From a virus, in the IMG/VR virus record IMGVR_UViG_3300042468_000945, positions 32,001 through 96,000 of that record: 64,000 bases of DNA; one strand, written 5' to 3'. The notes below the pieces were generated by a model. The model did no database searches. It saw nothing but the letters and a program-made list of their open reading frames with translations, and was not told the origin of the DNA. The first letter of the stretch is position 1; each line of letters opens with the position of its first letter. This document shows, piece by piece, positions 1-39,413 of the stretch. Position numbers and translations under genes: made by a program.

Positions 1-6
1 CGGCTA

Positions 7-600
7 TTAATCATTACTAACAAGTTCTCCGTAAATATCTGTGTGCATTATGAGGTATCTTTTTTCATTGAAACCTAATGGCTCCAAATCAACAATTAAA
101 GTATTATATGGGTTAAACACAACAGTAGAGCCTACTGATACTTGGTGCTCAATTGGATTACCTGTTGCATCAGTCCAACCATAACCTAAACTCTTTACAA
201 CACCCAAAGCAGGTGGGACAGTTTTTGAGTCTGGCATTAAAATTAAAGAGTCTTCTTCTTTTGTTTCAATCTTTTCAATTTCAATGTAGTTACCCAAAGG
301 TTTGAGGGTTAAGTTTTCTAAGTCTATTTTACACATTATATCTAATTCAGAGGCAACATAAAAAGGATCAGAATTTGGTAATTCAACAACTTCTTTTCCG
401 TGTGCCATTACATAAACTGTATCTTCTTGTTTCAGTTGAGAGGGTTGAATCTTACCATTAAAGTCAGGGAAGCCAGGACCAACATCTAAAACTTTACCCC
501 ATCTATATTCTTTCTTTGCACTGTCAATACTAACAATGTCAGGGTTTGCGTCGTCTATAAGATTAAATGTCAAATAATTATTAACAGGTTTGATTTTCAT
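7..600 (-). CDS. groES: Co-chaperonin GroES-like protein with two tandem Cpn10 domains (Cpn20-like)
   Basis: Two GroES-pattern repeats: IKPVNNYL...GKVLDVGPGFPDFNGKIQPSQLKQEDTVYV...ELDIMCKI and LKPLGNYIEIE...GVVKSLGYGWTDATGNPIEHQVSVGSTVVF...HTDIYGEL. Both match the GroES consensus (KPL.DRV, G.V.AVG.G, V..GD.V). Complete, with TAA at 7-9. Confidence 0.85.
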   Translation of the reverse strand: MKIKPVNNYLTFNLIDDANPDIVSIDSAKKEYRWGKVLDVGPGFPDFNGKIQPSQLKQEDTVYVMAHGKEVVELPNSDPFYVASELDIMCKIDLENLTLKPLGNYIEIEKIETKEEDSLILMPDSKTVPPALGVVKSLGYGWTDATGNPIEHQVSVGSTVVFNPYNTLIVDLEPLGFNEKRYLIMHTDIYGELVSND

Positions 601-606
601 ATTATT

Positions 607-1035
607 TTATTCAGAATCCATATCCTCAGATTCTTCTGGAGGAAGAGGTTTTGGTTTCTTCTTATTTGTTGGTTTCTTTTTTTCAGTTGCTTCTGCTTCT
701 TCTTTTGCAAAATCAGCTGAAATCATTTCTTGAATTTTGCTAAATTCAGCATCAACCCTTCTCTTTTCTACTGTAGTCATAATTTGAACTGTGCTATTTA
801 GAAGAGTTGCTAACATAAACAATGTATCTTTTGGTAGAGAAGTTGACAAAATAGTTTCCAACATCTTAGCATCTCTGTAAGAGTCTGCTGTTGAGATATT
901 TCCTGTAGGAGAAAACAGGACTACTTGTGGGTTGTTTCTTGTTGCGGAAACAAATACAGATTCTACGCTTACTGTAACGGGTGTGTTGTTAGGAATGGCG
1001 TCGCCATCTTCGTCGTAAAGTGCATCAAAATTCAT
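607..1035 (-). CDS. Hypothetical protein with charged Lys/Pro-rich C-terminus
   Basis: 142 aa ORF coupled to the upstream gene by a TAATG overlap at 1035. Faint DUF3467-like pattern only. Confidence 0.6.
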   Translation of the reverse strand: MNFDALYDEDGDAIPNNTPVTVSVESVFVSATRNNPQVVLFSPTGNISTADSYRDAKMLETILSTSLPKDTLFMLATLLNSTVQIMTTVEKRRVDAEFSKIQEMISADFAKEEAEATEKKKPTNKKKPKPLPPEESEDMDSE

Positions 1036-1403
1036 TAACTTAAAACCTCATAACTAAAAGCTCTATTACCTTTTACAGAAATATCTTTTACAGCTGGTCC
1101 AATACCTTTTTCAATGTATTCTCTCCAATCTTTATAACCACTAGCAACCCCGTTAGAGGTTGTCCAAACAAATGCAGTATCAAGATACTCCGTTAAGTTT
1201 AGTGTTGGGATTCTACTTGGATTTTTAATTGACCTAATTGTTTCTGAAATACCAAAAGCGGTTATACTTACTTCTGGTTTATCAGCACCATTAAATTTAA
1301 CAGCCAATTTAACTGTGTCACCCTCTTCAGTACTAATAGTTAGAAACCTAGTAAATGCTTCTTCTATTGTTGGTCTAACTAACTTTCTATGAAAATTACT
1401 CAT
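1035..1403 (-). CDS. Hypothetical protein
   Basis: 122 aa ORF whose start overlaps the upstream stop by 8 nt. No recognisable motif. Confidence 0.6.
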   Translation of the reverse strand: MSNFHRKLVRPTIEEAFTRFLTISTEEGDTVKLAVKFNGADKPEVSITAFGISETIRSIKNPSRIPTLNLTEYLDTAFVWTTSNGVASGYKDWREYIEKGIGPAVKDISVKGNRAFSYEVLS

Positions 1404-2082
1404 TTATATTATTTAAAACTTCCTTTATTTTCTCAATTGACTGTTGTAATTTTTTTGTTGACAATTTTAATTCTCTTTTAATGTCAATCCTAGTGTAACC
1501 TTCAGACAACATAATTGATACTATTCTTTCTAAACTTTCATTTTCAAATAAACCAGGATATGGTTCACTCCCATAATTCTTTAAATCTTGAACTAATGAG
1601 GAGCTTTGAGCATAATCAAATTCTTTAATTTTTAAAATTTTCTTCTTAGCATTAATTTTATTTCTAACAAGAAAACGTAAACTAATAGTAATATAGTTAT
1701 ATACTCTTTTATTTAAATCTCTTAAATTTAGTTCTTGATCTGAAAGAGAAGTTGTTGATTTTGGAATTAGTGTTGGATAAACAGAACAAAGCTCCGAACA
1801 TGGATTAGTCCTTACAGATTGAATATAATCAATTAACTCATTATAAGATAACTTCTTACAGATTATATTATAAACCATACTCTTTGCTTCTTGTACGAAA
1901 TCATCATTATCCTCTTCAGTCTGAAAATATAATTTACCTGCTTTTCTGAAGGAAAGGTTAATTAGTTTATTGACTGTTTCAATTGTCTGAAAATCGTTAT
2001 TTAAAGGGTCCAGTTTAAATTTAAGTATTTGTAGAATTAACTGTGTTTCTCTACTAATTGGCTTACTCTTTAATTTTGTCAT
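1396..2082 (-). CDS. Putative RNA polymerase sigma-factor-like / HTH transcription regulator
   Basis: DNDDFVQEA resembles the sigma region-2 D.EDLVQE motif. C-terminal LSEGYTRIDIKRELKLSTKKLQQSIEKIKEVL resembles a region-4 HTH. Confidence 0.5.
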   Translation of the reverse strand: MTKLKSKPISRETQLILQILKFKLDPLNNDFQTIETVNKLINLSFRKAGKLYFQTEEDNDDFVQEAKSMVYNIICKKLSYNELIDYIQSVRTNPCSELCSVYPTLIPKSTTSLSDQELNLRDLNKRVYNYITISLRFLVRNKINAKKKILKIKEFDYAQSSSLVQDLKNYGSEPYPGLFENESLERIVSIMLSEGYTRIDIKRELKLSTKKLQQSIEKIKEVLNNINE

Positions 2083-2186
2083 AATACTGTTGTGTTGTTA
2101 TTCTTTAGTATATATATACTATATACGTTTAAAATTACAAAAATTGCTGAAAAACAACAAAAATTGTGAAAAAACTGGTAATTATA
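2083..2186 (-). promoter_or_regulatory. AT-rich intergenic region with a 16 bp palindrome and a direct repeat (candidate promoter/operator)
   Basis: Perfect palindrome TAGTATATATATACTA at 2106-2121. ACAAAAATTG occurs at 2137-2146 and 2157-2166 (20 bp period). One of the largest gaps in the window, directly upstream of the sigma-like gene. Confidence 0.45.
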
Positions 2187-3257
2187 CTAGGCTAATTCCA
2201 TCACAATTCTAGAAATGACAGGGGTAGAGTATGTTGAAGGTGATGATAAATCAAGCCTTGCTTTTGTTGTAGTAATGACAGTTGGAATCAATGCAAGATC
2301 AAGTGGGTCCTTACCATAAATAGTTATGGTATCTAAATCCCTTGTAGCATCTTGTACAGTTAATGTTGCATTTTGATTATACGTATTACTTAAAACCCTT
2401 AAATTATAAAGTCCAGGTTTGTAACTTCCAACAGGTTCCATCTTAAACATTATTTCATTTATTGGTTCCCCGTCTAAATGAATTTTTAATGGTCCAGCAT
2501 TTTTAACTTTACTTGTACCAGAATCATAACCTGGCAGATAAGTAATATCTATATCTTCCCAGACAGCACTACCAGAAGACTTTCTAACTTTAACATCAGA
2601 AATGTGACAACCAAAAGCAGGGAAAGGATAAATTTCAAGAATATTAGGATTTAATCCTAAATACTGTAATGGGGCTTTAACCTTAATCCACACAGACTCT
2701 CCAGGCTTGTTAATGACCCACACACCTCTTCTGAGCAGCATATCTAGTCCATCAGAAGCACTTACAAACAAACCGTCAGCTGGTGTCGTTACAGAGGTTG
2801 AATAACCCAAACTAACTTCTGATGATACTTGATTAAAACCAAAGGAATCAGTTTGAACCAGTAGATCAGAAGAACTTGTAACAGGTAGAGTTACTTGTCC
2901 AAATAAATTATCTACGTTAGCAGTTGTGTTACCAGAATCAACGTAATCAGATTTAAAGAAGTCTGCCATTACATAGTTAGTATCTGTTAGTAGTGTGTCA
3001 ACTCTTGTTGTTAGGGTTGTTAATGGAGCACTTAAAGCAGCACCTTGCGATGCAGAAGCATCTGCAATCTTTGAAGACCTGTCAAGTAACTTATTTAAAT
3101 AAATAATAATTGAACCAATATCTTTAACAATACTTTGATTAAACCTATTTAAAACGGAGCTACTAGAAGATCCGCCCCCTTTAATACTAGGAGTTTCTAA
3201 GCTGTCCACAGTTAAAGAAACTGTATTAATGGTATCTGTAAATTTATTTTTATTCAT
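2187..3257 (-). CDS. Virion structural protein (baseplate/fibre-associated paralog family member 1)
   Basis: Helical N-terminus, then DFFKSDYVDSGNTTANVDNLFGQVTLP and C-terminal STPVISRIVMELA, motifs shared with the ORFs at 4104, 6350 and 8404. Confidence 0.6.
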   Translation of the reverse strand: MNKNKFTDTINTVSLTVDSLETPSIKGGGSSSSSVLNRFNQSIVKDIGSIIIYLNKLLDRSSKIADASASQGAALSAPLTTLTTRVDTLLTDTNYVMADFFKSDYVDSGNTTANVDNLFGQVTLPVTSSSDLLVQTDSFGFNQVSSEVSLGYSTSVTTPADGLFVSASDGLDMLLRRGVWVINKPGESVWIKVKAPLQYLGLNPNILEIYPFPAFGCHISDVKVRKSSGSAVWEDIDITYLPGYDSGTSKVKNAGPLKIHLDGEPINEIMFKMEPVGSYKPGLYNLRVLSNTYNQNATLTVQDATRDLDTITIYGKDPLDLALIPTVITTTKARLDLSSPSTYSTPVISRIVMELA

Positions 3258-4102
3258 TAATTAAACCACCTGGTTTTAATTTTTCTTCCTCTGACATCTT
3301 CATAGAATTTAACTTGTATTAAATTGTGTTGCATGTCTTGAATGATTGCGTCGCTAGGGTACGTTGATAAAAGATTTGTAGAAGAGTCTTCAATTCTAAA
3401 TCTAAGCAAATCTAACATTGTAAAAAATATGTATTGAAGTTTTTGCTTGAACAAAAGATATTTTGTGGATTCTCTTGCACCTCTGTATCTATGGTTTAAT
3501 TTAAAAGGAACTATAGAAACTCCAAGGCTTTTTGGTGCGCTTAAATAGTTTACTGCACCCCTGTTTCCACTACTTAAATCAGACCCAGGTATTTCAGTTG
3601 ATGTATTTGTGTTTCCTGGAGTAGTATTAGAAACTGTAGTTAATCCTCCTTGTGAGGTGTTACTAGTATTACTACTTCCTGGATTTGTAACAACTCCAGC
3701 ATTTGAAATTGGTGTTTGAGTATTATTAATTGGTGTTTGAGTATTGGATATGTTTCCAATACTAGGTGTATCAGAACCTGTTGTTGGATTTGCTACTGGT
3801 ATATTAGAACCAGTAAAATCAATCCCTGTGTGAGCACCAATAGTTTCTATTTCAATTATGGCTGGTATTTTACCATTACTATTTCCATAATTGTATTCTG
3901 GAGGTGTTGAAGGTGTAAGACCAGGAATAGTAAAAGTTACATCAACAGTACTGCCTGTATCAACACCTGATCCTGTTTCATTAGTTGGAGGTTCTGGGGG
4001 TCCTGGAGGTTGACTACCTTCAGGTAGTCCAATAATAGGAGGACCATCACCTAAATCATCACCACTGTAATATAGTTTATCGTCAAACCCGTCTCTTGGC
4101 AT
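3257..4102 (-). CDS. Pro/Thr/Ser/Asn-rich putative structural protein
   Basis: 281 aa. About 190 aa of low-complexity N-terminal sequence precede a helical C-terminal domain (NHRYRGARESTKY). Stop overlaps the next start (TAATG at 3257). Confidence 0.55.
   Translation of the reverse strand: MPRDGFDDKLYYSGDDLGDGPPIIGLPEGSQPPGPPEPPTNETGSGVDTGSTVDVTFTIPGLTPSTPPEYNYGNSNGKIPAIIEIETIGAHTGIDFTGSNIPVANPTTGSDTPSIGNISNTQTPINNTQTPISNAGVVTNPGSSNTSNTSQGGLTTVSNTTPGNTNTSTEIPGSDLSSGNRGAVNYLSAPKSLGVSIVPFKLNHRYRGARESTKYLLFKQKLQYIFFTMLDLLRFRIEDSSTNLLSTYPSDAIIQDMQHNLIQVKFYEDVRGRKIKTRWFN
3707..3745. repeat. 18 bp direct repeat with 21 bp period (encodes NTQTPI x2)
   Basis: AATTGGTGTTTGAGTATT at 3707-3724 and 3728-3745. 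Confidence 0.85.
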
Positions 4103-4103
4103 A

Positions 4104-6347
4104 TTATCTCACTGTTATTTTGTAATCTTCAAGAATAGGACCAGAAAAAGTTAATGGTTCCTTAATTAAATCAAAACGAAGTTTTACAGAACTAATAGAG
4201 TTCAAAGTTTCAGGACTACTTGTGTACTCAAGTTCATAGTTGGGGTTGCTTCCTTTAATATAACCATCAACACTAACAGTATCCCACGCATTGAACAAGA
4301 TAGCTTTTCCTTGTGTATCCCACGCCCAAAAGTTAAAATCTTGTGGTGTGTTCCACATAAGCTCAAATTCTGAGTTTGCTTTAGACTCTCCACTTGCTAC
4401 TACCTTGGTTATTCCAGCATCAAGTTGAAACTTCTTGTCAAAGAAAGATGGGAACATAGAAAACTGTAACATTGGTTTAAAACCACCTGCTCCATTATCG
4501 TTTCCGTATAAATCAGGGTCTAGTGTGTGTAGGTATGTTTCAATAAGATTCCAACCTTTTCTAAGAGTAAAGTTAAAAGATGATCCAAGATTACCAATTC
4601 CATTTACCCCACCCTCAACAAAACAACCATTTGTATCAGCTGTTGTGTAAACTGTAAAAGGTTTGTTAGATGTAATAACAGTAGACTTGTTAATGTCCAA
4701 AGTAAAACCACCATAAACCTTACTAACTTCAGTAAAGGATTTAAATGATCTATCTCTATATCCTTGTAGGAAAGAATACTTAGCTTGGTCAACAAAAAAG
4801 TCATTCTCACAGTAAACAAAGTAACTTACTTTGTATGTAAAGTTTGGTTGACATACATTCTTTGTTTTACCGCCACCTAACATTAAATAACAAAGATTTT
4901 GGTATTTATCTCCTGTTACTTGAAACTCAAACGGAAGAATTTCTGCTCCCTTAATTGCAGATGTATTTTGTGAGCTTGTAGGTGGTAAGAATAATTGAGT
5001 TGTATTTGTTCTTTCATTAAGAGTAGGTACATTAAGCCATGTTCTAAACTTCTTAATGTCCTGACTTAGAAAATCATTTTCTGCTGGTGTGTGTGGGAGT
5101 TCACCTAAAGCTGTATAATCTTTTTTGAAAGCAGTTACTTCAACTTGATTTTTACCAACTAAAAGAGATCCTTCTGTATAAGTGGTAGGTGCATTAGTTA
5201 CATCTACAACCCAGAAACTTCCTTCCTTTCTTACCTTTGATTTATCAATTTTAACAATATTGTTTTGATTTAGTTGCAGATATTTCCATGCTTGTTTTTT
5301 AATTTCAGTCCAAGTAACCCCAGAGTCGTTTGATATGTATGACTTAATGTATGTACCAGCTGGAATTTTAGATGTAAAATCTAAAAGTATTTGAGAATAG
5401 TTTATTGGTATGTTAATATCTCTACTACGAAGAGTAGCTATATCTACGGTATTCTCTGTAAACAATCTGATATTTCTGATACCAACTGTTTTAGGTAACA
5501 CAGCTGATGCTGGCTTGTATGTTATTTTTAATTTGCGTACATTACTATGTCCAACAATAAAAGTAGTTGTCTTGTAGATAATCTCAGTATTAACAAGTTC
5601 AAAACCGTTTCCTTTATTTACTTCAATTTTTACTTCACAACCAAAACCTGTTGGGTCAATTTGAATGTTAGATATATTATACTCCTTATCAAAAGAGTAC
5701 ACAGCATAGCTTTCTGCATTAGCTGTTACAAACATGGTCTTCCAACTGGTATTCTCTAAACCATCAACAGCATCAAGAGGAGATGAACCTAGAGAATCTG
5801 ATCCTTCATCATTATCAACAGAATCCACTCTAATATTTTTAGGGTCTATTGAACTTGAAACTACTGAGTTAGGTAAAAATACAATTCCTTCACTAACATC
5901 AAACCATGCTGAGGTGTTTGTTAAATCAATATTCTCGGCACTTGTAAAACTATCACCAAAAACAAACGTCCCATTATAACCAGACTTGAATCCTTCTAGG
6001 TCTGCTGTTGCTTTTAAATATTTGGCTTTGTTTTTTAAATTCTGAGATCGCACCCAAAATTCATTCTTTATATAAAGAATTTTTTGCTCAACTTCACTTG
6101 CAGCTTGGTTACCAACTTTCAAGTCTCTTCCATAACCTACAAAGTATTCTGAAATCTTCTTTATATTAATGCTTTCGTTTGATACTGCAATATACTGATT
6201 TACTAAAGGCAAACCAAAAGATTTCTTTTCAATTGATCCCAACATTCTTTTAAATGTCTCAGGAGTTGACAAAATTTCAAATCGAGTAAGACCCAATTTT
6301 GCCGCATCATCAAAAAGAACTTTCTTTTGTGTGTTATCAATTATCAT
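4104..6347 (-). CDS. Virion structural protein (paralog family member 2) with discoidin/F5-8C-like beta-sandwich
   Basis: Coiled N-terminus, GDSFTSAENIDLTNTSAWFDVSEGIVFLP, DAVDGLENTSWKT (discoidin-like A.DG...T.W), C-terminal SGPILEDYKITVR. Confidence 0.6.
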   Translation of the reverse strand: MIIDNTQKKVLFDDAAKLGLTRFEILSTPETFKRMLGSIEKKSFGLPLVNQYIAVSNESINIKKISEYFVGYGRDLKVGNQAASEVEQKILYIKNEFWVRSQNLKNKAKYLKATADLEGFKSGYNGTFVFGDSFTSAENIDLTNTSAWFDVSEGIVFLPNSVVSSSIDPKNIRVDSVDNDEGSDSLGSSPLDAVDGLENTSWKTMFVTANAESYAVYSFDKEYNISNIQIDPTGFGCEVKIEVNKGNGFELVNTEIIYKTTTFIVGHSNVRKLKITYKPASAVLPKTVGIRNIRLFTENTVDIATLRSRDINIPINYSQILLDFTSKIPAGTYIKSYISNDSGVTWTEIKKQAWKYLQLNQNNIVKIDKSKVRKEGSFWVVDVTNAPTTYTEGSLLVGKNQVEVTAFKKDYTALGELPHTPAENDFLSQDIKKFRTWLNVPTLNERTNTTQLFLPPTSSQNTSAIKGAEILPFEFQVTGDKYQNLCYLMLGGGKTKNVCQPNFTYKVSYFVYCENDFFVDQAKYSFLQGYRDRSFKSFTEVSKVYGGFTLDINKSTVITSNKPFTVYTTADTNGCFVEGGVNGIGNLGSSFNFTLRKGWNLIETYLHTLDPDLYGNDNGAGGFKPMLQFSMFPSFFDKKFQLDAGITKVVASGESKANSEFELMWNTPQDFNFWAWDTQGKAILFNAWDTVSVDGYIKGSNPNYELEYTSSPETLNSISSVKLRFDLIKEPLTFSGPILEDYKITVR

Positions 6348-6349
6348 TA

Positions 6350-8404
6350 TTACTCTGGAACCCCTTGTAGTGTGTAGTGGTTTAAGTATGGTGACCTGAA
6401 AGGATCATCAGGGTTCCCCTTTAAAACTGCTTTAAAATAAATGTCTTGAGAGGGTTTTTCTAGTTGGAAAGAGCTTTCCAATGTAGTATCTGAAAGAGGA
6501 ATAACTGGACTCCAATTTGTACCATCTGTAGATAAGTAGAAACTAATCCAATCTCCTTGACCCCACTCAGAAGGTACTGTATAATCAACAATAAGACCTA
6601 CAAGCCTTACAGGACGACTAAAAGATCTCTTCTTAGATAAGACTTCACTAACTGTACTATATACACTTCGTGTTAATGTAATATCTCGTATAGCAACATA
6701 AGATCTGAAACCACTAAAAATATCGTAACCTGTAACCTTTTCTAGTGTTTTGATCGTTTTACTTGTACCAAACGCATTTTTAATTAAATCAACAACCGCT
6801 AACCCAGCACCTATGTACGGAGTTACTTTTGATAAGAATGCACCAGCTTTTCCAAGTGCGGCACCGACTTTTGATTGTTGTAATTCTGGTAGTCCGTACC
6901 TACCCCTTCCAGCAACAATTCTTGGTGCAAGTCCAGGTAAGTTACTTAAGCTTGTTAGAATATTCCCACTGTCTCCATTTAGTATAGAGTTAGTTCCGCC
7001 ACCTAATTCATAAATACTATTAAAGAATGGTTGAGTTGAACCTAGTAAGTTTAATTGTTTACTTTCAACTGAAATTGTTGGAGTCTCTTCTGTTGTTGGT
7101 TTTCGTTCCCATGCCTTGCGTCTGTCTACTGAGGAGAATAGTCCATACTTTCTAACTGTTCTTTTCTCAACGAACTCTTCTGAAAATTGGTGAGCAAGTC
7201 CAGTTGTTACTTGATAAGGTTTACCACTGAACACCATTTTAATTTCACTAATGTCTCTGTTTGTAGGAACTGTAAAGACTGCGCCAATACTACTTGATCC
7301 AGTTCTTCTTAAAATTTCCTTTTGTAATGTTTTTGTTGATTTAGCTTGTACTGTTAAATCAACATTTCTTGCTATTGGAATAGTCTGACCATCTGTTACA
7401 ATGTATAAAGTTTCTAAAGCCATTTGACCTTGATTACTTCTTATAAAAGGAACAATCTTAACTTCTGAAACTGGTTGTGGAGTTAGCAAAGTCATTTTAA
7501 CTTCTAGCTTTGCATTATATGTTGCACTGTTTAGAGGATTTACATTATCCTCTAACCATTCCACAACATATGTCCCCGCCTTGTCTGGTCCAGCATCAAC
7601 AAAACCATCAGGGTAAACAATGGTTGCTTTCCAATCGTAATCTGAGGTTATTGCTTTTACGTTCTCTTTGTTTGCACCTAAGTTATATACCCAAGCCCTA
7701 CCTGCTCTTCTAACTGGTTGGTTTAAAGGTACTAGATTTCGTTCAATCTCAAACCAGGTTTGATTATTATTATCAGCAAGACCAGCTAAATCTTTAACCT
7801 CAGTTTTTTCTAAAGTAGGAGAAGGTTCTACATCAATATTAGATAAAGACTTAGAATCTAAAGCTAATAAATTACAACCTGGAATACCCACAAGACCATC
7901 TCTTTCTAGGTCAACTGTTACGTTAGGAATACTATAAAATTCTTGAACCCCTAAAGATGTGTTACCCATATCTGTGTCAACTAATGTAGTTGATTTGTCA
8001 AGGTCTACATAAGAGTTTGTATTAAAACTATCGCTTACCCACAAGTAATTTGAATCTTGGTCTTGTGTTAATGCAGTAATGTTTTGAACTGCATCTGTAG
8101 TTTCTAAAATAGTTTTCTCAGCACTTTCAATATCAGCCATGTAGCTGTTATTAGTATTTGACAAGTCTGAGTAAAGAGAGTCTACTTTTTGTGCTAGGCT
8201 TTCAATTTCCTGTATTGAGTATTGAATTGAATCATCAACTAACTCTCCAATATTTACTGGGTCAGCTAGTGGTGCAATCGGTGGTGGAGTAAGTTTATTT
8301 GTTTCCCTGTTAACATGTTTAGAAAGTGCTTGTATAATAGCAAGCTCACTTTCAGAAACAAAAGGAGAATTAAAATCAATATTTTTTAGTGGGTCGTTAT
8401 TCAT
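6350..8404 (-). CDS. Virion structural protein (paralog family member 3)
   Basis: Coiled N-terminus, SDSFNTNSYVDLDKSTTLVDTDMGNTSLG, GLADNNNQTWFEI, glycine-rich hydrophobic segment GAALGKAGAFLSKVTPYIGAGLAVVDLI, C-terminal RSPYLNHYTLQG. Confidence 0.6.
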   Translation of the reverse strand: MNNDPLKNIDFNSPFVSESELAIIQALSKHVNRETNKLTPPPIAPLADPVNIGELVDDSIQYSIQEIESLAQKVDSLYSDLSNTNNSYMADIESAEKTILETTDAVQNITALTQDQDSNYLWVSDSFNTNSYVDLDKSTTLVDTDMGNTSLGVQEFYSIPNVTVDLERDGLVGIPGCNLLALDSKSLSNIDVEPSPTLEKTEVKDLAGLADNNNQTWFEIERNLVPLNQPVRRAGRAWVYNLGANKENVKAITSDYDWKATIVYPDGFVDAGPDKAGTYVVEWLEDNVNPLNSATYNAKLEVKMTLLTPQPVSEVKIVPFIRSNQGQMALETLYIVTDGQTIPIARNVDLTVQAKSTKTLQKEILRRTGSSSIGAVFTVPTNRDISEIKMVFSGKPYQVTTGLAHQFSEEFVEKRTVRKYGLFSSVDRRKAWERKPTTEETPTISVESKQLNLLGSTQPFFNSIYELGGGTNSILNGDSGNILTSLSNLPGLAPRIVAGRGRYGLPELQQSKVGAALGKAGAFLSKVTPYIGAGLAVVDLIKNAFGTSKTIKTLEKVTGYDIFSGFRSYVAIRDITLTRSVYSTVSEVLSKKRSFSRPVRLVGLIVDYTVPSEWGQGDWISFYLSTDGTNWSPVIPLSDTTLESSFQLEKPSQDIYFKAVLKGNPDDPFRSPYLNHYTLQGVPE

Positions 8405-21338: not shown

Positions 21339-23024
21339 TTATTCCTTTGAATCTGGTAAATTATATACCAATGCTTCTGTAGTTAGGATAGTACCAGCCA
21401 CACTTGAAGCACTTAATACAACCTGTCTACTAACAAATGCAGGGTCAATGATTCCAAAATCAAACATATCACCGTACTCTCCAGTTCTGGCATTAAAACC
21501 ATACGTAGATTGTTTAGCTAGTGCCAGATTCTTTTCCTTATTAGGTCGTCCCCTCTCCCCAGTCTTTTCATTGTGTTCCAAGACTTTTTGATATACAACA
21601 GAACCATTATAACCAGCATTAGTTGCAATAGCAAGAAGAGGTGCCTTTAGGGTATCTAAGAATAGATTATAACCTACCTCAACATCACCATCCTTGAACT
21701 TTCTTGTTTGATTTGCCTTAACAACTTGTGCCGCTCTAATAAAGGACATCCCACCACCAACAACAATACCATTCTTTAAAGCAGTCTTTACAGCAGCAAC
21801 AGCATCTTCAAATCTGTACTTCTTTTCTTTCATTTCTGCTTCAGTGTTTGCACCAATACTGATAATACAAATACCACTTGTAAGTTTTGCTATTCTAAGT
21901 TCTAAGTACTCTTTCTGGAAAGGAGGTGTTTCTGGATCATTTTGCTTTTCCTTCAACTTATTTACATGAGCAGCAACAACCTCATCAGATGCAGAGCCAA
22001 TTAAAGTTGTAGTTTCTAAATCAATAATGATTTTCTTCGCCTTCCCTAATGAACGGAAGGATACATTATTAACCCTTGTACCTGATTCTTTTCTAATAAA
22101 TTCAGCACCAGTTATAACTGCCAAGTCTTCATACCAATCCTGAACCCTAGCACCATAGCCAGGAGCCTTAACACAAGCAAACATGTAACCTCTTTCTGCC
22201 CTATTCTTTGCCAATGTCATAAAAGCATCTTGACTGGTAGGTACGTTTCCAATAATCAAAAGATTACCTTCATGTTTTCTTGGGTTTTCTTTTAAGTATA
22301 CAGTAAGGAAGTCTGCCATTTCAGGTGCTGTCTTAATATCATCTTCAAAAAGCAAGATATCAACATCTTCCATAACGCACTCTAACTTGTCACGATCTGT
22401 AATAAAGTAAGGACTGAGGAGACCACTATCAAAATTCATGCCCTTACTATGCTTTAAAACCGTTTCTAGACCTCCTGGATGGAAAGTAACAAAACCATTA
22501 CCCCCTACCGAAGTAAACGCATCAGCGACTGTTTTACCAACATGTTCATCGTTACCAGAAATAGTAGCAAGATTCTCAATTACAGCATAATCCTCAGCTG
22601 TAATTGGTTTAGCCATTGAGTCAATTACTTCAACAACATCCCTAGCAGCTTCTTCAATACCTTCTTTAATTCTAATACCGTTTCTATTTAGGCCAACTTG
22701 CTTGTTACCTTCGTGAACCACTGCTTGGGCTAACACAATACTAGAGGTTGTCCCATCACCTACAGTATCATTAGTTCTAATTGCAGCTTGTTTTAGTAAT
22801 TGTGCTCCAATAGATTCAGCTGGGTCTGCTACCTTAATTGATCTTGCAACAGTTACACCGTCTTTTGTGACAATTGGCGGAACCCAAACATTGTCAGATT
22901 CAATAACAACATTAGAACCACCAGGACCTAACGTAACTGATACTGCTTTAGCAACCTTATCTACGCCTCTAATAATAGCCTTTCTAGCGTCATCTGAGTA
23001 CATTGTCTCGTTCTTATTATTCAT
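21339..23024 (-). CDS. groEL: Chaperonin GroEL (Cpn60)
   Basis: VTLGPGGSNVVI, VTKDGVTVA, VGDGTTSS, KAPGYG, EKKYRFEDAV, IVVGGG, GIIDPA. ATPase aspartates equivalent to E. coli D52/D87/D398 are present. Confidence 0.97.
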   Translation of the reverse strand: MNNKNETMYSDDARKAIIRGVDKVAKAVSVTLGPGGSNVVIESDNVWVPPIVTKDGVTVARSIKVADPAESIGAQLLKQAAIRTNDTVGDGTTSSIVLAQAVVHEGNKQVGLNRNGIRIKEGIEEAARDVVEVIDSMAKPITAEDYAVIENLATISGNDEHVGKTVADAFTSVGGNGFVTFHPGGLETVLKHSKGMNFDSGLLSPYFITDRDKLECVMEDVDILLFEDDIKTAPEMADFLTVYLKENPRKHEGNLLIIGNVPTSQDAFMTLAKNRAERGYMFACVKAPGYGARVQDWYEDLAVITGAEFIRKESGTRVNNVSFRSLGKAKKIIIDLETTTLIGSASDEVVAAHVNKLKEKQNDPETPPFQKEYLELRIAKLTSGICIISIGANTEAEMKEKKYRFEDAVAAVKTALKNGIVVGGGMSFIRAAQVVKANQTRKFKDGDVEVGYNLFLDTLKAPLLAIATNAGYNGSVVYQKVLEHNEKTGERGRPNKEKNLALAKQSTYGFNARTGEYGDMFDFGIIDPAFVSRQVVLSASSVAGTILTTEALVYNLPDSKE

Positions 23025-23025
23025 A

Positions 23026-23532
23026 TTAATTTTTCTTAATTTCCTTTTCTAGTGCAATAAAAACTGCAACTGAATCTGATATGTTATACAAGTCTTTAAG
23101 TTTAGTTTTTTGTAGTCTGTCTCCAAACCCGTCAAATCTTAATTTAACAGCTTCTAAAATCTCTGTTTTTTCTGCTGTTCTATTATTACAAACTCTTTTT
23201 TTAACTTCTGATGCTGTGATATATTTAAATTCTATTTTTCTTGATATACACATAGATATAATACTACCCTCAACTAAAGCTAAAGCTTTAGCTGCTAGGC
23301 TGCTTTTAGATCCTAAAGGTATTTCAAAAAGAATGAGGTTAATAGAATAATCATCAATTAGTTTATTTAAGGTTGTAATTATATTTGATATTCTTTCAAT
23401 ATAATCGTCTTTTTGTTTTTTAGTTGAATCTTTTTTGGATGATATACACCCAAAGTCTTTGATTAAATCTCCAATAATAACTGACCATCCAAAGCCAGTT
23501 AGACTAGGATCTAAACATAAACAATTTCTCAT
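23026..23532 (-). CDS. ruvC: RuvC-like Holliday junction resolvase
   Basis: LCLDPSLTGFGWSV (D), LILFEIP (E), YITASEVKK, AEKTEILEAV, NISDSVAV (D): the RuvC acidic motifs in order. Confidence 0.85.
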   Translation of the reverse strand: MRNCLCLDPSLTGFGWSVIIGDLIKDFGCISSKKDSTKKQKDDYIERISNIITTLNKLIDDYSINLILFEIPLGSKSSLAAKALALVEGSIISMCISRKIEFKYITASEVKKRVCNNRTAEKTEILEAVKLRFDGFGDRLQKTKLKDLYNISDSVAVFIALEKEIKKN

Positions 23533-24983: not shown

Positions 24984-26096
24984 TTATTGTACTAACAATG
25001 TTCTTAGAATAATTTGTTCTCCAACACCCACATTAACTTCCCTATCAGGAGAAAGTTGAATACCATCAAGACTTGCTGTAATTGATGCATCAATTACAGC
25101 ACTATCAGAAGAAGCTGCAATAGTTCTAAGTTGAGATATAAATAAGGAACTACTGCCTCCACCTGTTTCTATTGGTAGGGCATTAATTAATGAAGATATT
25201 TGAGTTCTAACAGATGCTCTAATATTTTCTTGGTTAGTTGCAGTAGGTTTAAACCTTAAAGAAATTTTAACATCAAGGTTTCTTGCTGTTGGGACTCTAA
25301 CTACTGCGTTAATTCCTACATTAACTGCATCATCTAGTACAGCCTGGCATTTTTCAACAATATCGTTTGCCTGGTTCTGGTGGTAAGGTGTTACAATAAT
25401 GTCAAAAGTACCACCACCACGATTTAGATTTAAAAGAACAGCATCCTTAACACCAACAACACCCCTTACAAGTGCAATAACATTATCAGTATTTAATACG
25501 TTTCTTCTTCTAAACCCTTGTAGAATTCTTTCACGATAACTATCGTCAGACTCTTGTAAACTACCATTTGTAATTGGTAGAATATTACTTACTCGTACAT
25601 TGGGGTTAGGCACATTATGGGAGTCAATTTCTCCTGCACCTACATTATATGCTGGACCTGTTTGTGCCGCTGATACGTGAACATCAACTGATTGACCAGC
25701 ACCAACAGAAGCACCTTCAACAGTGAAGAAAGCATTATTTATATTACTAGAAACCCAAACCCGAGTACTAAAAGGTATTGAAACAGAAGAACCACTTAAG
25801 TTAGTAAATCTGATTGACTTTGTTTGACCTAGTGTAGTGGCTTTACTTTCTTCTTTCCTAGCCACCCCTACAATTAAACCTATTTGATCTAGGGATGGAC
25901 CTGTCGCAGTTGTTAAGTTAGATTGATTATTTAAATCTTCTAGGTATTCCCAAATACCATCTAACTCCTCAGCGACTAACCTTAAAAGAGTTCCAATTAC
26001 TGTGCCATTTAAGCTGGCAGTGATACTTGTTTCAGAGACAATTCTGCTGTATAAACTATTTAAAATTTCCTCTTTAGACGGTCTTGCTATGTTCAT
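24984..26096 (-). CDS. Baseplate J-like wedge protein
   Basis: TATGPSLDQIGLIVGVARK, V.A...G..YNV.AGEI, ITNGSLQESDDSYRERI, GVKDAV...GGGTFDIIV: classic Baseplate_J motifs. Confidence 0.88.
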   Translation of the reverse strand: MNIARPSKEEILNSLYSRIVSETSITASLNGTVIGTLLRLVAEELDGIWEYLEDLNNQSNLTTATGPSLDQIGLIVGVARKEESKATTLGQTKSIRFTNLSGSSVSIPFSTRVWVSSNINNAFFTVEGASVGAGQSVDVHVSAAQTGPAYNVGAGEIDSHNVPNPNVRVSNILPITNGSLQESDDSYRERILQGFRRRNVLNTDNVIALVRGVVGVKDAVLLNLNRGGGTFDIIVTPYHQNQANDIVEKCQAVLDDAVNVGINAVVRVPTARNLDVKISLRFKPTATNQENIRASVRTQISSLINALPIETGGGSSSLFISQLRTIAASSDSAVIDASITASLDGIQLSPDREVNVGVGEQIILRTLLVQ

Positions 26097-26098
26097 AA

Positions 26099-26437
26099 TT
26101 AAGTTCCAAAAATAATGCTGTCTCTAAACTTAAATAGAGGATTAATTTTTAGGTTAATAATTGCTTTAGTTAATTCTTCGTTATAATCAATTTCATAACT
26201 AATTAAACCAAAGTAAGCATACTTCTTGTCTTTAGATGTTTCAGATTCCAAAATTAAAGTTTCATTTAATTTTAAATGCGTTAAGTCTACTTTATCAATG
26301 TCTAATGTTAAAATTAATGTGTTTTTCTTTGTTAGTTCCACATTATTAACACTAAAACAAAGTTTCCTATCAAGATAACCTTCCTCACCAGGGTTTCCTT
26401 TCTTTAACAAATATAAATAATACTTTAAATTATCCAT
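26099..26437 (-). CDS. Hypothetical protein
   Basis: 112 aa ORF whose start overlaps the glycosyltransferase stop by 8 nt. Confidence 0.55.
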   Translation of the reverse strand: MDNLKYYLYLLKKGNPGEEGYLDRKLCFSVNNVELTKKNTLILTLDIDKVDLTHLKLNETLILESETSKDKKYAYFGLISYEIDYNEELTKAIINLKINPLFKFRDSIIFGT

Positions 26438-27722
26438 GACTTTCTCTACAACACTTCTTATATTTTAATCCAGAACCACAAGGGCAAAGTGCATTTCTAT
26501 CTACTTGACCCCAAACTCTACCACTTATTTTTTTATTAGGTCCTAGTTTTCCTTTTTGTGCTCTATCAATAATATCTTTCCAAGCATAAGGCCACTTATG
26601 AAAATTATTTTCTAGTGAGTATTCATTAATTGCAAGTTCTCGATTTTCCTTTTGCATCTTCTCTCTTCTTACAGTATTGGTTACAAGTTCTTCTAAAGCA
26701 GAAAACCATGTACTATAGTTACCCTCACCACTACCCACAATTAAAACACTTTCAGGGTGCTTTCTTTGGAGCTTAGAATATGGAGCAACATTACTTGCAA
26801 TCATGGCTTGACCAGCTGCAAAACCTTCAAGAAGTTTTAAAGGGGATTTTGAAATATTAAATTCACAAGGGTGAACAGGAGCTAAACCAATATCTGCACC
26901 AAACAATCCTGTTGGGTGATCCATAAAGTGTCTTGGTTCCACCAATTCATATCTACCTTCTGGAATGATATTATCTTTATTAAGGTGATTAAAGATGTCT
27001 GGCGCACCATAGTAAGCAAAAATAGTTTCTGGATATTTCTGTAAGATTCTAGAAATAGGAACCATTATCTGCTCTAAATCAGTAAGGTGCGAACTACCTC
27101 CACTCCATTGGATCACAACTTTATCTTTCCATCTATCTGGTTTTTTAATTTTTATAGGTTCAAAGAATGGTTCTCCGTCTTGCCAAGAAACATTAACCTT
27201 CCAATCTCTAAAACTAAAATCAATATAGTTAGGCAGGATTGCGTAGTTTGTGTTAAACTCAGAATAAGCACCAGCTAACTCCTCAGTGGTTACAGTCAAA
27301 CCGTGACAGTTTTCCATAAACTTCTCTAGCCACTTTAAAGTATCTGAACCAGGATAATATGCAGTATAGGCTGGACTTGTTTTTAAAACTTTATGCAGGT
27401 CGTCATCAACCTCAAAAACAATTATCTTTCCATCCCATTGAAGTGTTCTAAACATTTCATAGGCTTCTGGGCTATTTTGTCTTGGTGCAATAATAACATC
27501 TGCATGTATGAATTGATTCAAATTTTGAGATGTTCCATATACAACATCTGCTCCATGCATTTTTAACATGTGGAGCGGATTAATTACCCTATAATGCCCA
27601 CAAGCACCATTATCAGCAACTAAACCAACAACTTTAAGTCCAGCATACTTGTCGCTTACTTTGTAGTCTGGAAGTTTCCTAGATGTTGTGGATACTTTCT
27701 CAATTAAACTGTTTGTTTCCAT
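26430..27722 (-). CDS. GT-B (GT4-like) glycosyltransferase with C-terminal SEC-C Zn-binding motif
   Basis: CGHYRVINP, VFEVDDDL, ILPNYID, QWSGGSSH, DIGLAP...NISKSPLKLLEGFAAG...IASNVAPY are GT4-like. The protein ends VDRNALCPCGSGLKYKKCC (SEC-C consensus RN.PCPCGSGKKYKKCC). Confidence 0.85.
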   Translation of the reverse strand: METNSLIEKVSTTSRKLPDYKVSDKYAGLKVVGLVADNGACGHYRVINPLHMLKMHGADVVYGTSQNLNQFIHADVIIAPRQNSPEAYEMFRTLQWDGKIIVFEVDDDLHKVLKTSPAYTAYYPGSDTLKWLEKFMENCHGLTVTTEELAGAYSEFNTNYAILPNYIDFSFRDWKVNVSWQDGEPFFEPIKIKKPDRWKDKVVIQWSGGSSHLTDLEQIMVPISRILQKYPETIFAYYGAPDIFNHLNKDNIIPEGRYELVEPRHFMDHPTGLFGADIGLAPVHPCEFNISKSPLKLLEGFAAGQAMIASNVAPYSKLQRKHPESVLIVGSGEGNYSTWFSALEELVTNTVRREKMQKENRELAINEYSLENNFHKWPYAWKDIIDRAQKGKLGPNKKISGRVWGQVDRNALCPCGSGLKYKKCCRESHG

Positions 27723-30101: not shown

Positions 30102-30779
30102 TTAATATTGATACAGATTATTAGTTCTCATTAAATTAATTAATTTAGATGCGTATTCTGTATTTGTACCAGCATATCCAGCTGCCTGTAAAGCTCTAGC
30201 TACGTCATCTGCATTTTGTAATTTACCAATGCCTTGTTTCTTATACCTTGGTCCTGTAAGAAATCTTCCATGATCCATAATACTTTCTTCCCAGTTATGG
30301 TAAACCCTAAAGTTTGCTGTAGTAACAAACTGATTACTACCCGATCCTTCTCTTGTTCTTAAAGCAATTGTACCAGCAGGTCCAGAACCTTTAATACCAA
30401 ACAAGTTATTATATTTAGAAGCTAAATCACTTTTACCCCAACCGCTTTCTTCACACGCTTGTGCAAGTATAACAGCTACAGGAATATTGTATAGTTCAAA
30501 AGTTTTTTTAGCTCCTGGAAGTATTTTATCAATAAAGTCTTTCTTTGTTTTAGGTATGGGATTAGTATTTACAGGAGTGTTGTTATTTGTTGGCCCATTT
30601 GCAGCATTGATTATTTGTTGAAAAGCATTACCTACAGCCTGGAAGTAATTATTTGTTGGACCATATGGGAGTTTACTTTCAAACCCCATATTTGCACGTT
30701 GTTCAAATAAATACCTTTCAAGGAGCTTTTCAAGGTGTGAAGGGTCTTCTGGAATTATACTACTAAAATTTTCATTCAT
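30102..30779 (-). CDS. GH73 glucosaminidase/muramidase (FlgJ-like) with N-terminal tag
   Basis: FIDKILPGA, VILAQACEESGWGKS (catalytic E), NNLFGIKG, FRVYHNWEESIMDH, LQAAGYA...YASKLI. Confidence 0.92.
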   Translation of the reverse strand: MNENFSSIIPEDPSHLEKLLERYLFEQRANMGFESKLPYGPTNNYFQAVGNAFQQIINAANGPTNNNTPVNTNPIPKTKKDFIDKILPGAKKTFELYNIPVAVILAQACEESGWGKSDLASKYNNLFGIKGSGPAGTIALRTREGSGSNQFVTTANFRVYHNWEESIMDHGRFLTGPRYKKQGIGKLQNADDVARALQAAGYAGTNTEYASKLINLMRTNNLYQY

Positions 30780-33700
30780 TTTTAGCTCCTATATTTTTAA
30801 TCCTCTTTAAGTATTCAGTGTCAGATTGTGTGTGGCCATAATCTGGAACTTCTATACCAACTAGAGCCGCTAAGATAGTTGTACCTTTAGCCGCTAGACC
30901 ATCATGTTGTCCACCTAACCAACCACCCAAGAAATTATCAAAAATAGATAGATCATCTCCTACAACACAACCTTGGTGTCCTCTAATACCAGCAACATAA
31001 GGAAGGGATGTACCATTACTATCTCTTGTTCTCAGAGGAATAATTGTTACAGCTTGTCTAGCTCTTAGTGTAGAGTTAGCATAGTCTATAATAGAAGCAC
31101 CAACTGTAAACCTAATAACCTCAACAGCAGCCCTTAAAACAATAGCAGGAGATAGCCATGATACTGCTTTAATAGACGGAGCAATTACTTTCTTCATTCT
31201 ACTTGCAGCTATGGCGACTTTTTCATTTTTGAAAACAACTCCCAACTCCTTAGCAGCTAGAAAATCATCAACTTTTTGTCCTGTTGCTTTAAGCGCATTC
31301 TCAGCAATTTTAATTCTTTCAACTAATCTAACAGGATTAGAGGCTTCCCTTACAACAGCTTTCAGTTCATCATCGGCAGTTGCAATACCAGCTGCCTGAG
31401 CAGCAGTAAATTGTTGTGCTGTTAAACCTTTTCGATCAGTAAGTAACTCAACAGTATCTAGTTCCTTAATAAAGTCATTCAACCTACCCGCATCATTAGG
31501 TAAGTCTGTTTCAATCATATAGTTTAAACTTTCAACGTCTTTTAAAAGATCATTCAGTCTCTTTTCAAGAACTATTTTTCCTTCAACTGTAGTAGCTGCA
31601 TTATAAGCAGTTTCAGCTTCTTTAATTTGTTCTGCCCTCTTAGCAATTAATTCATAGGCATTTTTTATCTCTTCTTTAATTTCTGGTTCTATTAATTTAA
31701 GCTGGTCCTTGAGTCTTTTTGCCACAATACTATCAGCAATCTCAATAACTTTATCTCTATCTAATGTGTCTTCAAACTTAGCTCCTAACTCTTTTAGAAG
31801 ATCAACATAATAAAGTTGACTTTCTACAGCGATGTTTAAAACCTTTTTCTGTAGGCCAGATGCTAGTCTTAAAGCTGGTAACTCAAGGTCTAAGTCTCTT
31901 GATCGTCTTAAAATATCAAATAAGTTATTACTTGATTTGTCATTAAGAATTCTTTTTAGTTCGTTTAATTGTTTTCTTCTTTTTGCCCCATAAAATGGTC
32001 TGAGTAAAATAGGCTTCTTCAATTCCAAATCAATCTCAGAAAGAAGTTTTTCTCTGATTTCTGACAGAGAATTAGCATAGAACTTAGTATTTAATTCACT
32101 AGAACCTAAAACTTCTAGGGCTTGGTTAAGTTCCGCAACCCTCATGTTGAAAGGCATATATAGTTTCTTAGTTAAGTATGCTGCTACAACTGTTGTTACT
32201 GCCCTTCCAACCATGTATTGACCTACTTTATTTACAGGTCCAACTGATAAAGCAGTAACTAGTTTTGTTCCTTGTACGCTAGTAAATGGAAGTGCAACAC
32301 AATCTGGAGTTATCATAGTGACAAACCCCCTTTCTGAGTTTAAAATGTGTGTAACGTTTCTTACAAACAAAGGACCTTCAAGACTATTAATAGTATCATT
32401 CAATAAGACAATATCATTTGGTTTAATACATGCTTGTCCTTGAATAGAGAACACCCCAGAATACATAGTTTTAACTGTATCACACAAACCAGTTAGAACA
32501 GAGTTTTCCACTGCTGGAGTATCTGGTACTCCTTGTAATGAGTCACCCACAACAGGTACAAACTTACCAACAGCATCTTTAAAAGATTCGTAATAACCTT
32601 TTTGAGCGGCTGTTACATATAATCCAGTATCAACAAGTAAAGTTTTTCTTTCTGCTGGTTGGATATCACTATCAACACTATAGGTTAATGTTCTAGACAT
32701 GTGATCTGTTGAAGCCACACCATTAAAAGTATTAACACCTGTTGCGTCAGTAAAGACTGTTGAAGCATCACTAGATATTGAATTTGACAGCAAGTTTAAA
32801 CCAGTAATTGCTGGCCATACTTGGGTGTAACATTTCCATTTAAGGTGTTTTGTGTAGTTATTAACATCTTTTAATAGTTCAGCTTGTTTATCAGAAGTGT
32901 TTTCAATGTTTTTAAAATCGGTTACATAAGATACTGTTACCAATCTCGGATTCTGATTTATTTGATCAGGACCAAACTTTGGTGATACGGAGAATCTGGC
33001 TCTCACAATATCTCCGTCTGCTCGTTTTAATGTAACATACTGTACAAGATCTCCAAGAACTGACCCCTGAACAAATCCTGGTTCAACTTCATTCCTCTCT
33101 AATACTTTCAGGACAATATCTTTTGAATTAGTAGCCTTTAAATATGCAGCAACCTGGGGCAAAAGTGGTTTAGTATTTGTAGTTTCTTCGTTTTCCAACA
33201 AAGGGGGTCTTTGGTATTTTAGAATAGATGGGTCATAAGCATAATTAAATGGATACCACCAACCACCAAAGAAGAGGGTTGATCTTGTATGGAATGGTTC
33301 TACTGCTGTAACAAAATCCATTACTGCCATTCTACATACGTTAGCAGTCTTCCAAACAGAAGGTTCTTTAACACTAACAGAAATTAGAGTAGTACCAGCC
33401 CAATTATAAATTGCATTCTTGCTGGCAATTTCACTCAACCAATTAAATTGTTGGTACATCAATCCTTTTCCTGCACCATACATATTCATAAATAATTCAG
33501 GAGTGTGGTATGTAAGTCCAGAATAATACACGTCACCAAAGTGTGGCGTTACACACCTCTTACCATACCTACCACCAGTGACTACACCAGCTATATTACC
33601 AGCTATGTCATTAGGAACCATAGTTTGGGCAATAATGTAAGCAGGTTCAGTTCCTGTTCCTGCAAAACCTGTAGGACTTTGATAACCTAAACCACCATCG

Positions 33701-38678: not shown

Positions 38679-39413
38679 CTATCTTTCTATTGTGTGCGTT
38701 CTAAGTCTTACACCAGTATGTACTTGTCTTGGATCGTTTTCTGGATATGATCCTGGGCTATCTTTTCTTTCCGTCTTCTCTCCAGCTGAGTTATCAACAA
38801 CATTTTGTATGAGTGTCCTAGTTGAAGCATCTGCTTTTCTTAAACCAACTGTTGCTCTAAGTGTTGCACTATGAGCAAAAGGGACTACACCTACTTCTAA
38901 CAACCTAGGAATGGTTTCTTCAGAAAGGAAGTTTTTCAAGTATGGTGCTTTCTTGAGAACGGTTTCATAGGTAGAGTCAATTGAGTTTACAAATTCACTT
39001 TTACCCTTACTAACTAATAGAGTACGAAGTTTGTTAAATAAATCTTTCTGAGTGCTTTTAGCATACTTATATGATGCAAATCCAGCTAAAACAGTTAAAC
39101 CTTGAATACCAACTGCTGTGATTGGATCATAACCTTTCTTCCTATCAGCAACAACACCAGCACTCATCTGGGCACCCATAAAAAACATGGACCTAAACCC
39201 TTCTGAGTTTATTTTTCTGTTAGTAGCTGAAAAAGCATATGCCGCAACACCAGAGAATATTCCAATTTTCCTGGTTCGATCTACGTCTTCTTGGTCAGAC
39301 TCGGGCAACCCAAAACTTCTTGCTATAGACTTATCGTTAGATAACGATACGGCTGAAAGCAAAGCCATACCTACAATACCAGTAGCTGTAGATATTTTAT
39401 TGTTAATTGACAT
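38679..39413 (-). CDS. Predicted membrane protein (3-4 hydrophobic helices)
   Basis: Hydrophobic segments ATGIVGMALLSAVSL, IGIFSGVAAYAF, MFFMGAQMSAGVVA and ITAVGIQGLTVLAGFASY. Confidence 0.6.
   Translation of the reverse strand: MSINNKISTATGIVGMALLSAVSLSNDKSIARSFGLPESDQEDVDRTRKIGIFSGVAAYAFSATNRKINSEGFRSMFFMGAQMSAGVVADRKKGYDPITAVGIQGLTVLAGFASYKYAKSTQKDLFNKLRTLLVSKGKSEFVNSIDSTYETVLKKAPYLKNFLSEETIPRLLEVGVVPFAHSATLRATVGLRKADASTRTLIQNVVDNSAGEKTERKDSPGSYPENDPRQVHTGVRLRTHTIER

Follow-up and report, generated by a model that had tools for sequence, protein, structure and literature searches.

The closest described counterparts of the protein reported here are the tandem co-chaperonins of plastids and apicoplasts, Cpn20 (Cpn21) and the Chlamydomonas proteins CPN20 and CPN23, in which two Cpn10 domains share a chain of about 200 residues. 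Tandem GroES has hitherto been treated as a plastid speciality, and plastids also encode single-domain Cpn10 partners. The presence of multiple Cpn60 and Cpn10/20 paralogues makes these systems hard to study. A seven-fold ring cannot be tiled by an even number of domains, and a tetramer with one domain excluded has reportedly been proposed for plant Cpn20. In a review of the plastid proteins the tandem type is termed "chloroplast-specific", and how an even domain number can fit a seven-fold ring has been a matter of debate ever since the tetrameric state of Cpn20 was discovered (PMC5780408).

In virioplankton, GroES genes occur in operons of both orders, GroES>GroEL and GroEL>GroES, and are carried by 40% of GroEL-bearing contigs; the main survey of viral chaperonins makes no mention of a fused form (PMC5649160). 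Two reports describe the chaperonins of phages EL (gp146), OBP and AR9 as working without a co-chaperonin (PMC7185714, PMC9598537). A first-pass annotation of the locus described below took the studied phage GroELs to work without GroES, which stands for the EL, OBP and AR9 type and fails as a general statement, phage pairs of GroEL and GroES being well documented (PMC5649160).

Here we describe a GroES-type gene from a stretch of 64,000 nucleotides (the window) of a 118-kb IMG/VR virus record with 35% G+C and an estimated completeness of 66%; the same DNA is present in several lake-water metagenomes. Its 197-residue product is a genuine tandem co-chaperonin with two complete GroES beta-barrel domains, arranged head-to-tail and joined by a linker of about four residues.

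Results and Discussion

Gene Neighborhood

The window contains a Baseplate_J gene, giant ORFs and a RuvC gene in addition to the features collected in Table 1. The co-chaperonin gene belongs to a tight minus-strand array, in which it starts just after the upstream ORF (spacing in Table 1) and shares 17 nt with the downstream ORF. Both flanking genes recur at corresponding positions in G001, a related record of 235 kb, where the counterpart of the upstream neighbor is 34% identical; this neighbor matches no Pfam family. A scan for promoters and terminators around the co-chaperonin gene yielded nothing above shuffled expectation, and no tRNA genes were found in the window. Motifs resembling Shine-Dalgarno sequences precede 43% of the long ORFs against a background of 10%, with no clear host signal.

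Table 1. Features of the tandem co-chaperonin locus and the presumed partner gene, in window positions
Feature	Position	Strand	Product or residues	Evidence and remarks
Tandem Cpn10-Cpn10 co-chaperonin gene	7..600	-	197 aa + stop; ATG start	Pfam Cpn10; AF2 model
N-terminal GroES domain	316..600	-	aa 1-95, short D-L-E-N linker at end included	PF00166; phrog_3188
C-terminal GroES domain	10..315	-	aa 96-197	PF00166
N-domain mobile-loop region	502..558	-	aa 15-33; tripeptide I22-V23-S24	family alignment columns
C-domain mobile-loop region	208..270	-	aa 111-131; I120-L121-M122-P-D	family alignment columns
Upstream neighbor, function unassigned	607..1035	-	142 aa; acidic/lysine-rich tail	ends 6 nt before co-chaperonin start
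Phage GroEL, presumed partner	21339..23024	-	561 aa	Pfam Cpn60_TCP1, E 1e-57; phrog_5725, E 3.5e-127

Several other genes of the region could be assigned. A RuvC-type Holliday-junction resolvase gene (23026-23532, minus strand; Pfam E 3e-10) stops 1 nt short of the GroEL gene, and the two lie amid unannotated ORFs near the Baseplate_J gene (24984-26096). The 430-residue protein encoded at 26430-27722 (minus strand) carries a SEC-C zinc-binding motif at its end (Pfam E 8e-9) and matches no other family. Three giant minus-strand ORFs follow in the same array: 30772-38676 (2634 aa), 39413-44131 (1572 aa) and 45608-51796 (2062 aa). Downstream of the co-chaperonin gene, just beyond the left end of the window, is a block of sugar- or lipid-modifying genes (G000:C1:24962-29930, corresponding to L023:12962-17930) that encodes a short-chain dehydrogenase, a PhyH-family dioxygenase, a hexapeptide transferase-glycosyltransferase fusion, and GT9- and GT2-like proteins.

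Two GroES Domains in One Chain

The whole protein matches the Pfam Cpn10 profile (PF00166) in two stretches with 73.2 bits. Each half was also scanned separately against this profile, whose curated cut-off is 21.1 bits. Residues 1-97 alone scored 31.2 bits (E 2.3e-7, profile positions 24-93) and residues 98-197 alone scored 46.3 bits (E 4.4e-12, profile positions 2-86), both above the cut-off. The first-pass reading of the ORF as two GroES-pattern domains, with two Cpn10 matches expected, is thereby borne out, and the case of a single scoring half was not seen. The PHROG GroES model phrog_3188 likewise matches both halves, the N-terminal one at profile positions 1-94 and the C-terminal one at 3-88. 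Among PDB sequences the best match of the protein is the Chlamydomonas Cpn23 tandem (7ekq_Q, E 1.9e-6), with bacterial GroES and Cpn20 next in rank; the C-terminal domain aligns best with H. thermophilus GroES over residues 99-188. We also considered that two adjacent GroES genes had been joined by an assembly or frameshift error, and rejected this explanation because about 50 diverged relatives share the uninterrupted two-domain length.

An AlphaFold2 model of the single chain, built on a 38-sequence family alignment, consists of two all-beta domains (mean pLDDT 92.9, pTM 0.86), and the predicted fold is that of the GroES beta-barrel. When the model was compared with the PDB using Foldseek, the tandem Chlamydomonas chains 7ekq_Q (Cpn23) and 7ekq_R (Cpn20) ranked first, with TM scores of 0.65-0.70 over about 205 columns at 18-19% identity. 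That the best full-length structural matches are Cpn23 and Cpn20 agrees with the Cpn20-like form proposed at first pass. The next matches are single GroES chains of GroEL-GroES complexes (TM 0.71-0.90, normalised by target). A protein of the T4 gp31 type would have one domain and match gp31 closely; the window protein has two, and gp31 (1g31_A) appears at rank 33 (E 6.8e-3, TM 0.33 by query). A structure search of the ESM Atlas returned a diatom cluster named "chloroplastic 20 kDa chaperonin" (TM 0.76).

Mobile Loops in Both Domains

The 38 aligned sequences share the invariant residues W34, G41, G43, D87, P101, G139 and G141, and their mean column identity is 0.33 in one half and 0.34 in the other, which amounts to about equal conservation. 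Across the family, both halves retain a loop motif, G-[ILV]-x-[LI]-P-[DE]; in the C domain its consensus is G-[ILV]-x-[LI]-P-[DE]-S. The N-loop tripeptide is hydrophobic at all three positions in 23 of the 38 members and at two or more in 31, and P-D commonly follows; the corresponding counts for the C loop are 23 and 33. Judged from these alignment columns, both domains appear to possess a mobile loop with the hydrophobic tripeptide that contacts GroEL. In the window protein the third position of the N-loop tripeptide is a polar Ser, and some distant members have lost the N-loop patch (P0018, P0020, P0044, P0047, P0048, P0059 and P0061). We note that among single GroES proteins from virioplankton, 23% are likewise polar at tripeptide position 2 or 3 (PMC5649160). 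Of the two hydrophobic patches named in the first-pass annotation, IVS in the N domain was placed correctly, while LIL in the C domain is one residue off the register set by the family alignment and by the "I-V-L-P-D" motif of GroES, which gives I120-L121-M122 followed by P-D.

A Canonical GroEL Encoded by the Same Phage

The GroEL gene noticed at first pass is real, and its product is canonical, as its matches to Cpn60_TCP1, phrog_5725 and bacterial GroEL attest. By sequence, the protein belongs to the GroES-dependent type: it matches H. thermophilus GroEL with an E value of 8e-116 and E. coli GroEL with 1e-96, compared with 4e-29 for the phage EL chaperonin (6tmt). Its C-terminus reads NLPDSKE and lacks a GGM tail. 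In the part aligned with apical helices H/I, small insertions and LAKN in place of LVVN set the protein apart from bacterial GroEL; by mapping from E. coli GroEL, we take this region to be the GroES-binding groove.

Relatives of the tandem protein, 37-54% identical to it, are encoded in four further viral records (G001, 235 kb and an estimated 95% complete; G002, 194 kb; G003, 150 kb; G004, 95 kb). In all five phage records a GroEL gene lies 19-25 kb upstream of the tandem gene on the same strand (21 kb in the window). Because the five records are related phages, this co-occurrence is conserved synteny and counts roughly as one evolutionary observation. The tandem co-chaperonin is a core gene of a freshwater lineage of large tailed phages whose records span 95-235 kb. 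Searches with PF00166 and phrog_3188 (E<=0.1) found no Cpn10 domain in the five records other than the two halves of the fused protein; these records are 66-95% complete, so that a single-domain partner could lie in a missing part, above all in the window's own record (66%), and a gp31-like partner too divergent for the two profiles could escape detection.

Two of the related records contain longer GroEL ORFs of 866-870 aa (L007:1474-4074(-), equivalent to G002:C1 ~128320-130920, and G003:C1:57012-59501). Here the matches to Pfam Cpn60 positions 1-62 and 63-486 are split by about 330 aa that match Hom_end and LAGLIDADG_3, and because of these matches between the two Cpn60 parts the insert is probably an intein with a homing endonuclease. 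It is absent from the GroEL of the window and from that of G001.

Distribution of the Family

HMMER, run exhaustively over 1.84 billion cluster representatives, recovered 95 homologous clusters at E<=1e-3, 52 of them at E<=1e-10, nearly all of about 190-230 aa and spanning both domains. The nearest single-domain GroES proteins appeared only at E ~1e-5 and plant Cpn20 at ~3e-5. Every family member that we looked up derives from a metagenome assembly (JGI, ENA, Logan), with contigs reaching 245 kb; NCBI and UniRef accessions are lacking throughout, and no name other than "GroES" is given to any. Three relatives are longer, P0075 (416 aa, on a 2.3 kb JGI contig), P0064 (368 aa) and P0095 (327 aa); with up to five Cpn10 stretches, they are possibly three- or four-domain GroES concatemers.

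The four related viral records emerged from alignment-based searches of viral contigs. Viral-contig searches with the window protein alone, P0017 or P0058 as query returned no related loci, and alignment-based scans of genome contigs and of metagenome contigs returned no relatives. Against 50,697 phage records, tblastn with the window protein and with member P0020 gave no match, and the divergent member P0058 retrieved only single-domain GroES, mostly on records resembling host contamination; a megablast of window positions 1-8000 against the phage collection was likewise without a match. Degenerate DNA patterns for the motif RW..V..VGPG.PD found either nothing or G001 only, and for this reason IMG/VR appears to hold few members of the family. 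Since no cellular or prophage copy turned up in the genome-contig scan, the distribution offers no clue to the host.

Of 30 feature matches in the ESM Atlas, the three listed are viral (97-100%) Cpn10 clusters whose representatives measure 190-236 aa; several double-length viral proteins in BFVD also match the model. Double-length Cpn10 proteins are thus common, not rare, among the protein clusters of uncultured phages and metagenomic viruses. Full-text searches for tandem or double GroES or Cpn10 retrieved only papers on plastids and apicoplasts, and the phage form seems to be undescribed in the literature. The first-pass annotation knew of no described phage example; this holds insofar as no describing paper was found, and the architecture itself is not rare, as the ESM Atlas, BFVD and 200-aa proteins of Cellulophaga phages attest. 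Proteins of this family now labelled merely "GroES", or left nameless, can be reannotated as tandem co-chaperonins.

Origin of the Fusion

For 67 separated domains we computed a maximum-likelihood tree (LG+G4, quick search, 103 columns). In this tree the 24 N-domains group together without exception (SH-aLRT 86), as do the 24 C-domains in a clade of their own (SH-aLRT 94), and the four plastid Cpn20 domains are placed with cellular and phage single GroES (support 90). Because the N and C clades are separate and the plastid domains group with cellular GroES, the fusion looks to have arisen once, before the phage family diversified, and on the simplest reading it is independent of plastid Cpn20; support for the tree is moderate. 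Common descent with the plastid fusion would require a different domain tree from the one obtained, again at moderate support. The protein has no plastid transit peptide and begins directly at strand 1 of domain 1, whereas plant homologues are about 250 aa long and their domains start at residues 44-63. If this reading is right, the tandem architecture of phages and plastids is a case of convergent evolution.

A Working Model and Its Alternatives

We consider it likely that the tandem protein is the cognate lid of the phage GroEL and that both of its loops engage the apical domains. The architecture, the fold, the loops kept family-wide in both domains, the co-inheritance of GroEL and the lack of a further detectable Cpn10 domain all argue for this assignment. 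Genes for GroES and GroEL are typically adjacent in an operon, and the 21 kb between the two genes here counts against it, as do the Ser in the protein's own N loop and the degenerate N loops of several distant members. By homology, several tandem chains would assemble into a dome to which each chain contributes two neighboring "subunits". With the phage GroEL in its ATP state, the mobile loops of both domains would dock on the apical domains, and the dome would shut the folding chamber over phage proteins made late in infection. The binding of the two proteins, the oligomeric state and the clients are thus predicted ones. The stoichiometry might be solved by adding one host GroES to three tandem chains, by leaving out one domain of a tetramer, or by a phage GroEL ring that is not heptameric. 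The first-pass suggestion that the fusion may suit the cage to large virion substrates is speculation.

How the lid is composed bears on two of the less likely readings. Three tandem chains (six domains) and one host GroES would give seven domains, as in the Chlamydomonas Cpn11/Cpn20/Cpn23 hetero-oligomer. Such a mixed lid would settle the arithmetic of seven against an even number, and it has a parallel in 7ekq, where the tandem chains Q (chaperonin 23) and R (Cpn20) are accompanied by a 95-residue chain P that matches a single domain of Cpn10 size. With no single Cpn10 domain detected in the phage records, the host would have to supply it. The tandem domains are divergent, however, and their best single-domain matches reach only E>=1e-5, so co-assembly with host GroES is putative, and we regard the mixed lid as rather unlikely. 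A minimal two-gene chaperonin, in which a tandem GroES serves one GroEL and single-domain subunits are absent, would dispense with the host protein and imply a ring-lid symmetry other than 7:7. Possible forms are an eight-fold ring with a tetramer, a six-fold ring with a trimer, or an eight-domain tetramer on a seven-fold ring with one domain left out. We hold this for improbable; if true, it would be a new solution to the symmetry mismatch of Cpn20, and one simple enough for cryo-EM.

Other readings concern the partner or the working parts of the protein. Like T4 gp31, it might cap the host GroEL, instead of or besides the phage GroEL, which would then act alone or with host GroES. The distance of 21 kb between the tandem gene and groEL, which do not form one operon, would suit this, as would the abundance of GroES-only phages in virioplankton (PMC5649160) and phage phi18:3, in which a Cpn10-type protein of 200 aa and a single GroES occur without a GroEL. 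We nevertheless doubt it, because all five records with the tandem gene also carry GroEL, this GroEL is of the GroES-dependent type by sequence, and its differences at helices H/I suggest a co-adapted partner. Alternatively, the C-terminal domain alone might work as GroES, with the N domain a degenerate scaffold or spacer, so that the lid would touch the ring at half its positions. The N half does score lower (31 vs 46 bits), its Pfam match omits profile positions 1-23, its tripeptide I-V-S has a polar third residue, and seven listed distant members have lost the patch. Yet all-hydrophobic tripeptides are equally frequent in the two loops, P-D often follows in the N loop as well, the halves are equally conserved, phrog_3188 matches the N half from its first position, and polar residues at tripeptide position 2 or 3 are also found in virioplankton single GroES (PMC5649160); a lid with only one working domain per chain is accordingly a reading to which we give little credence. 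Very improbable, in our judgment, is a role other than capping a chaperonin, such as scaffolding head assembly or regulating some other ring complex. The best structural match does come from a ClpP-co-chaperonin complex (7ekq), plastid co-chaperonins being able to bind ClpP, and the gene lies amid structural genes and genes of unassigned function, but both domains conserve the motif of the GroEL-binding loop and GroEL is co-inherited.

Comparison with Known Systems

The chaperonins of phages EL (gp146), OBP and AR9 resemble the window GroEL in belonging to large phages, but the latter is far closer to bacterial GroEL (E ~1e-116) than to EL gp146 (4e-29). T4 gp31 and RB49 CocO are, like the tandem protein, phage-encoded proteins of the lid type with a GroES-like fold; gp31 has a single domain and acts on host GroEL, whereas the window protein has two domains and matches gp31 only weakly in structure. 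Nearer in gene content are the GroEL-carrying isolates Bacteroides DAC16, Vibrio Va1 and Flavobacterium immuto, which have single-domain GroES in open frames of 96-108 aa. These phages and the virioplankton operons, like the window phage, pair a phage Cpn10 with a canonical phage GroEL. Their GroES gene adjoins groEL in DAC16 and immuto and is 7.4 kb away in Va1, compared with 21 kb in the window. DAC16 also has a 206-aa ORF (L022:1108-1728, record positions 66629-67249) with a weak Cpn10 match of 16 bits, below the cut-off, which may be a very divergent double-length Cpn10-like protein or a chance match.

Double-length proteins of a second kind occur in four near-identical Cellulophaga isolates (phi18:3, phi13:2, phi19:3 and phi46:3), each with a 200-aa "co-chaperonin GroES"; in phi18:3 this is gp096 (L024:41458-42060), encoded just upstream of the terminase. 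As a Cpn10-type protein of double length, gp096 is like the window protein (BFVD match over ~224 columns, TM 0.57), but the two share no detectable sequence similarity (BLASTP E 0.75). Only the C half of gp096 scores as Cpn10 (34 bits); its N half has no Pfam match and is Cpn10-like by predicted structure only. Phage phi18:3 further differs in that no GroEL was found in it and in having a separate, ordinary 84-aa GroES (gp080, 31108-31362).

The closest counterparts remain plastid Cpn20 and the Chlamydomonas proteins, which share with the phage protein a short linker and one mobile loop per domain; the phage protein differs in its low identity to them (18-19%), in being phage-encoded and in lacking a transit peptide. 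Single-domain Cpn10 partners are present in plastids, whereas none was detected in the five phage records (66-95% complete), for which host GroES is a possible partner. As this lineage has a single GroEL and a single tandem lid, and no single-domain subunit was detected, the phage pair would make a clean recombinant model for the symmetry mismatch, and it may show what the fusion gains, for example asymmetric loops, or stable assembly while concentrations are still low early in infection.
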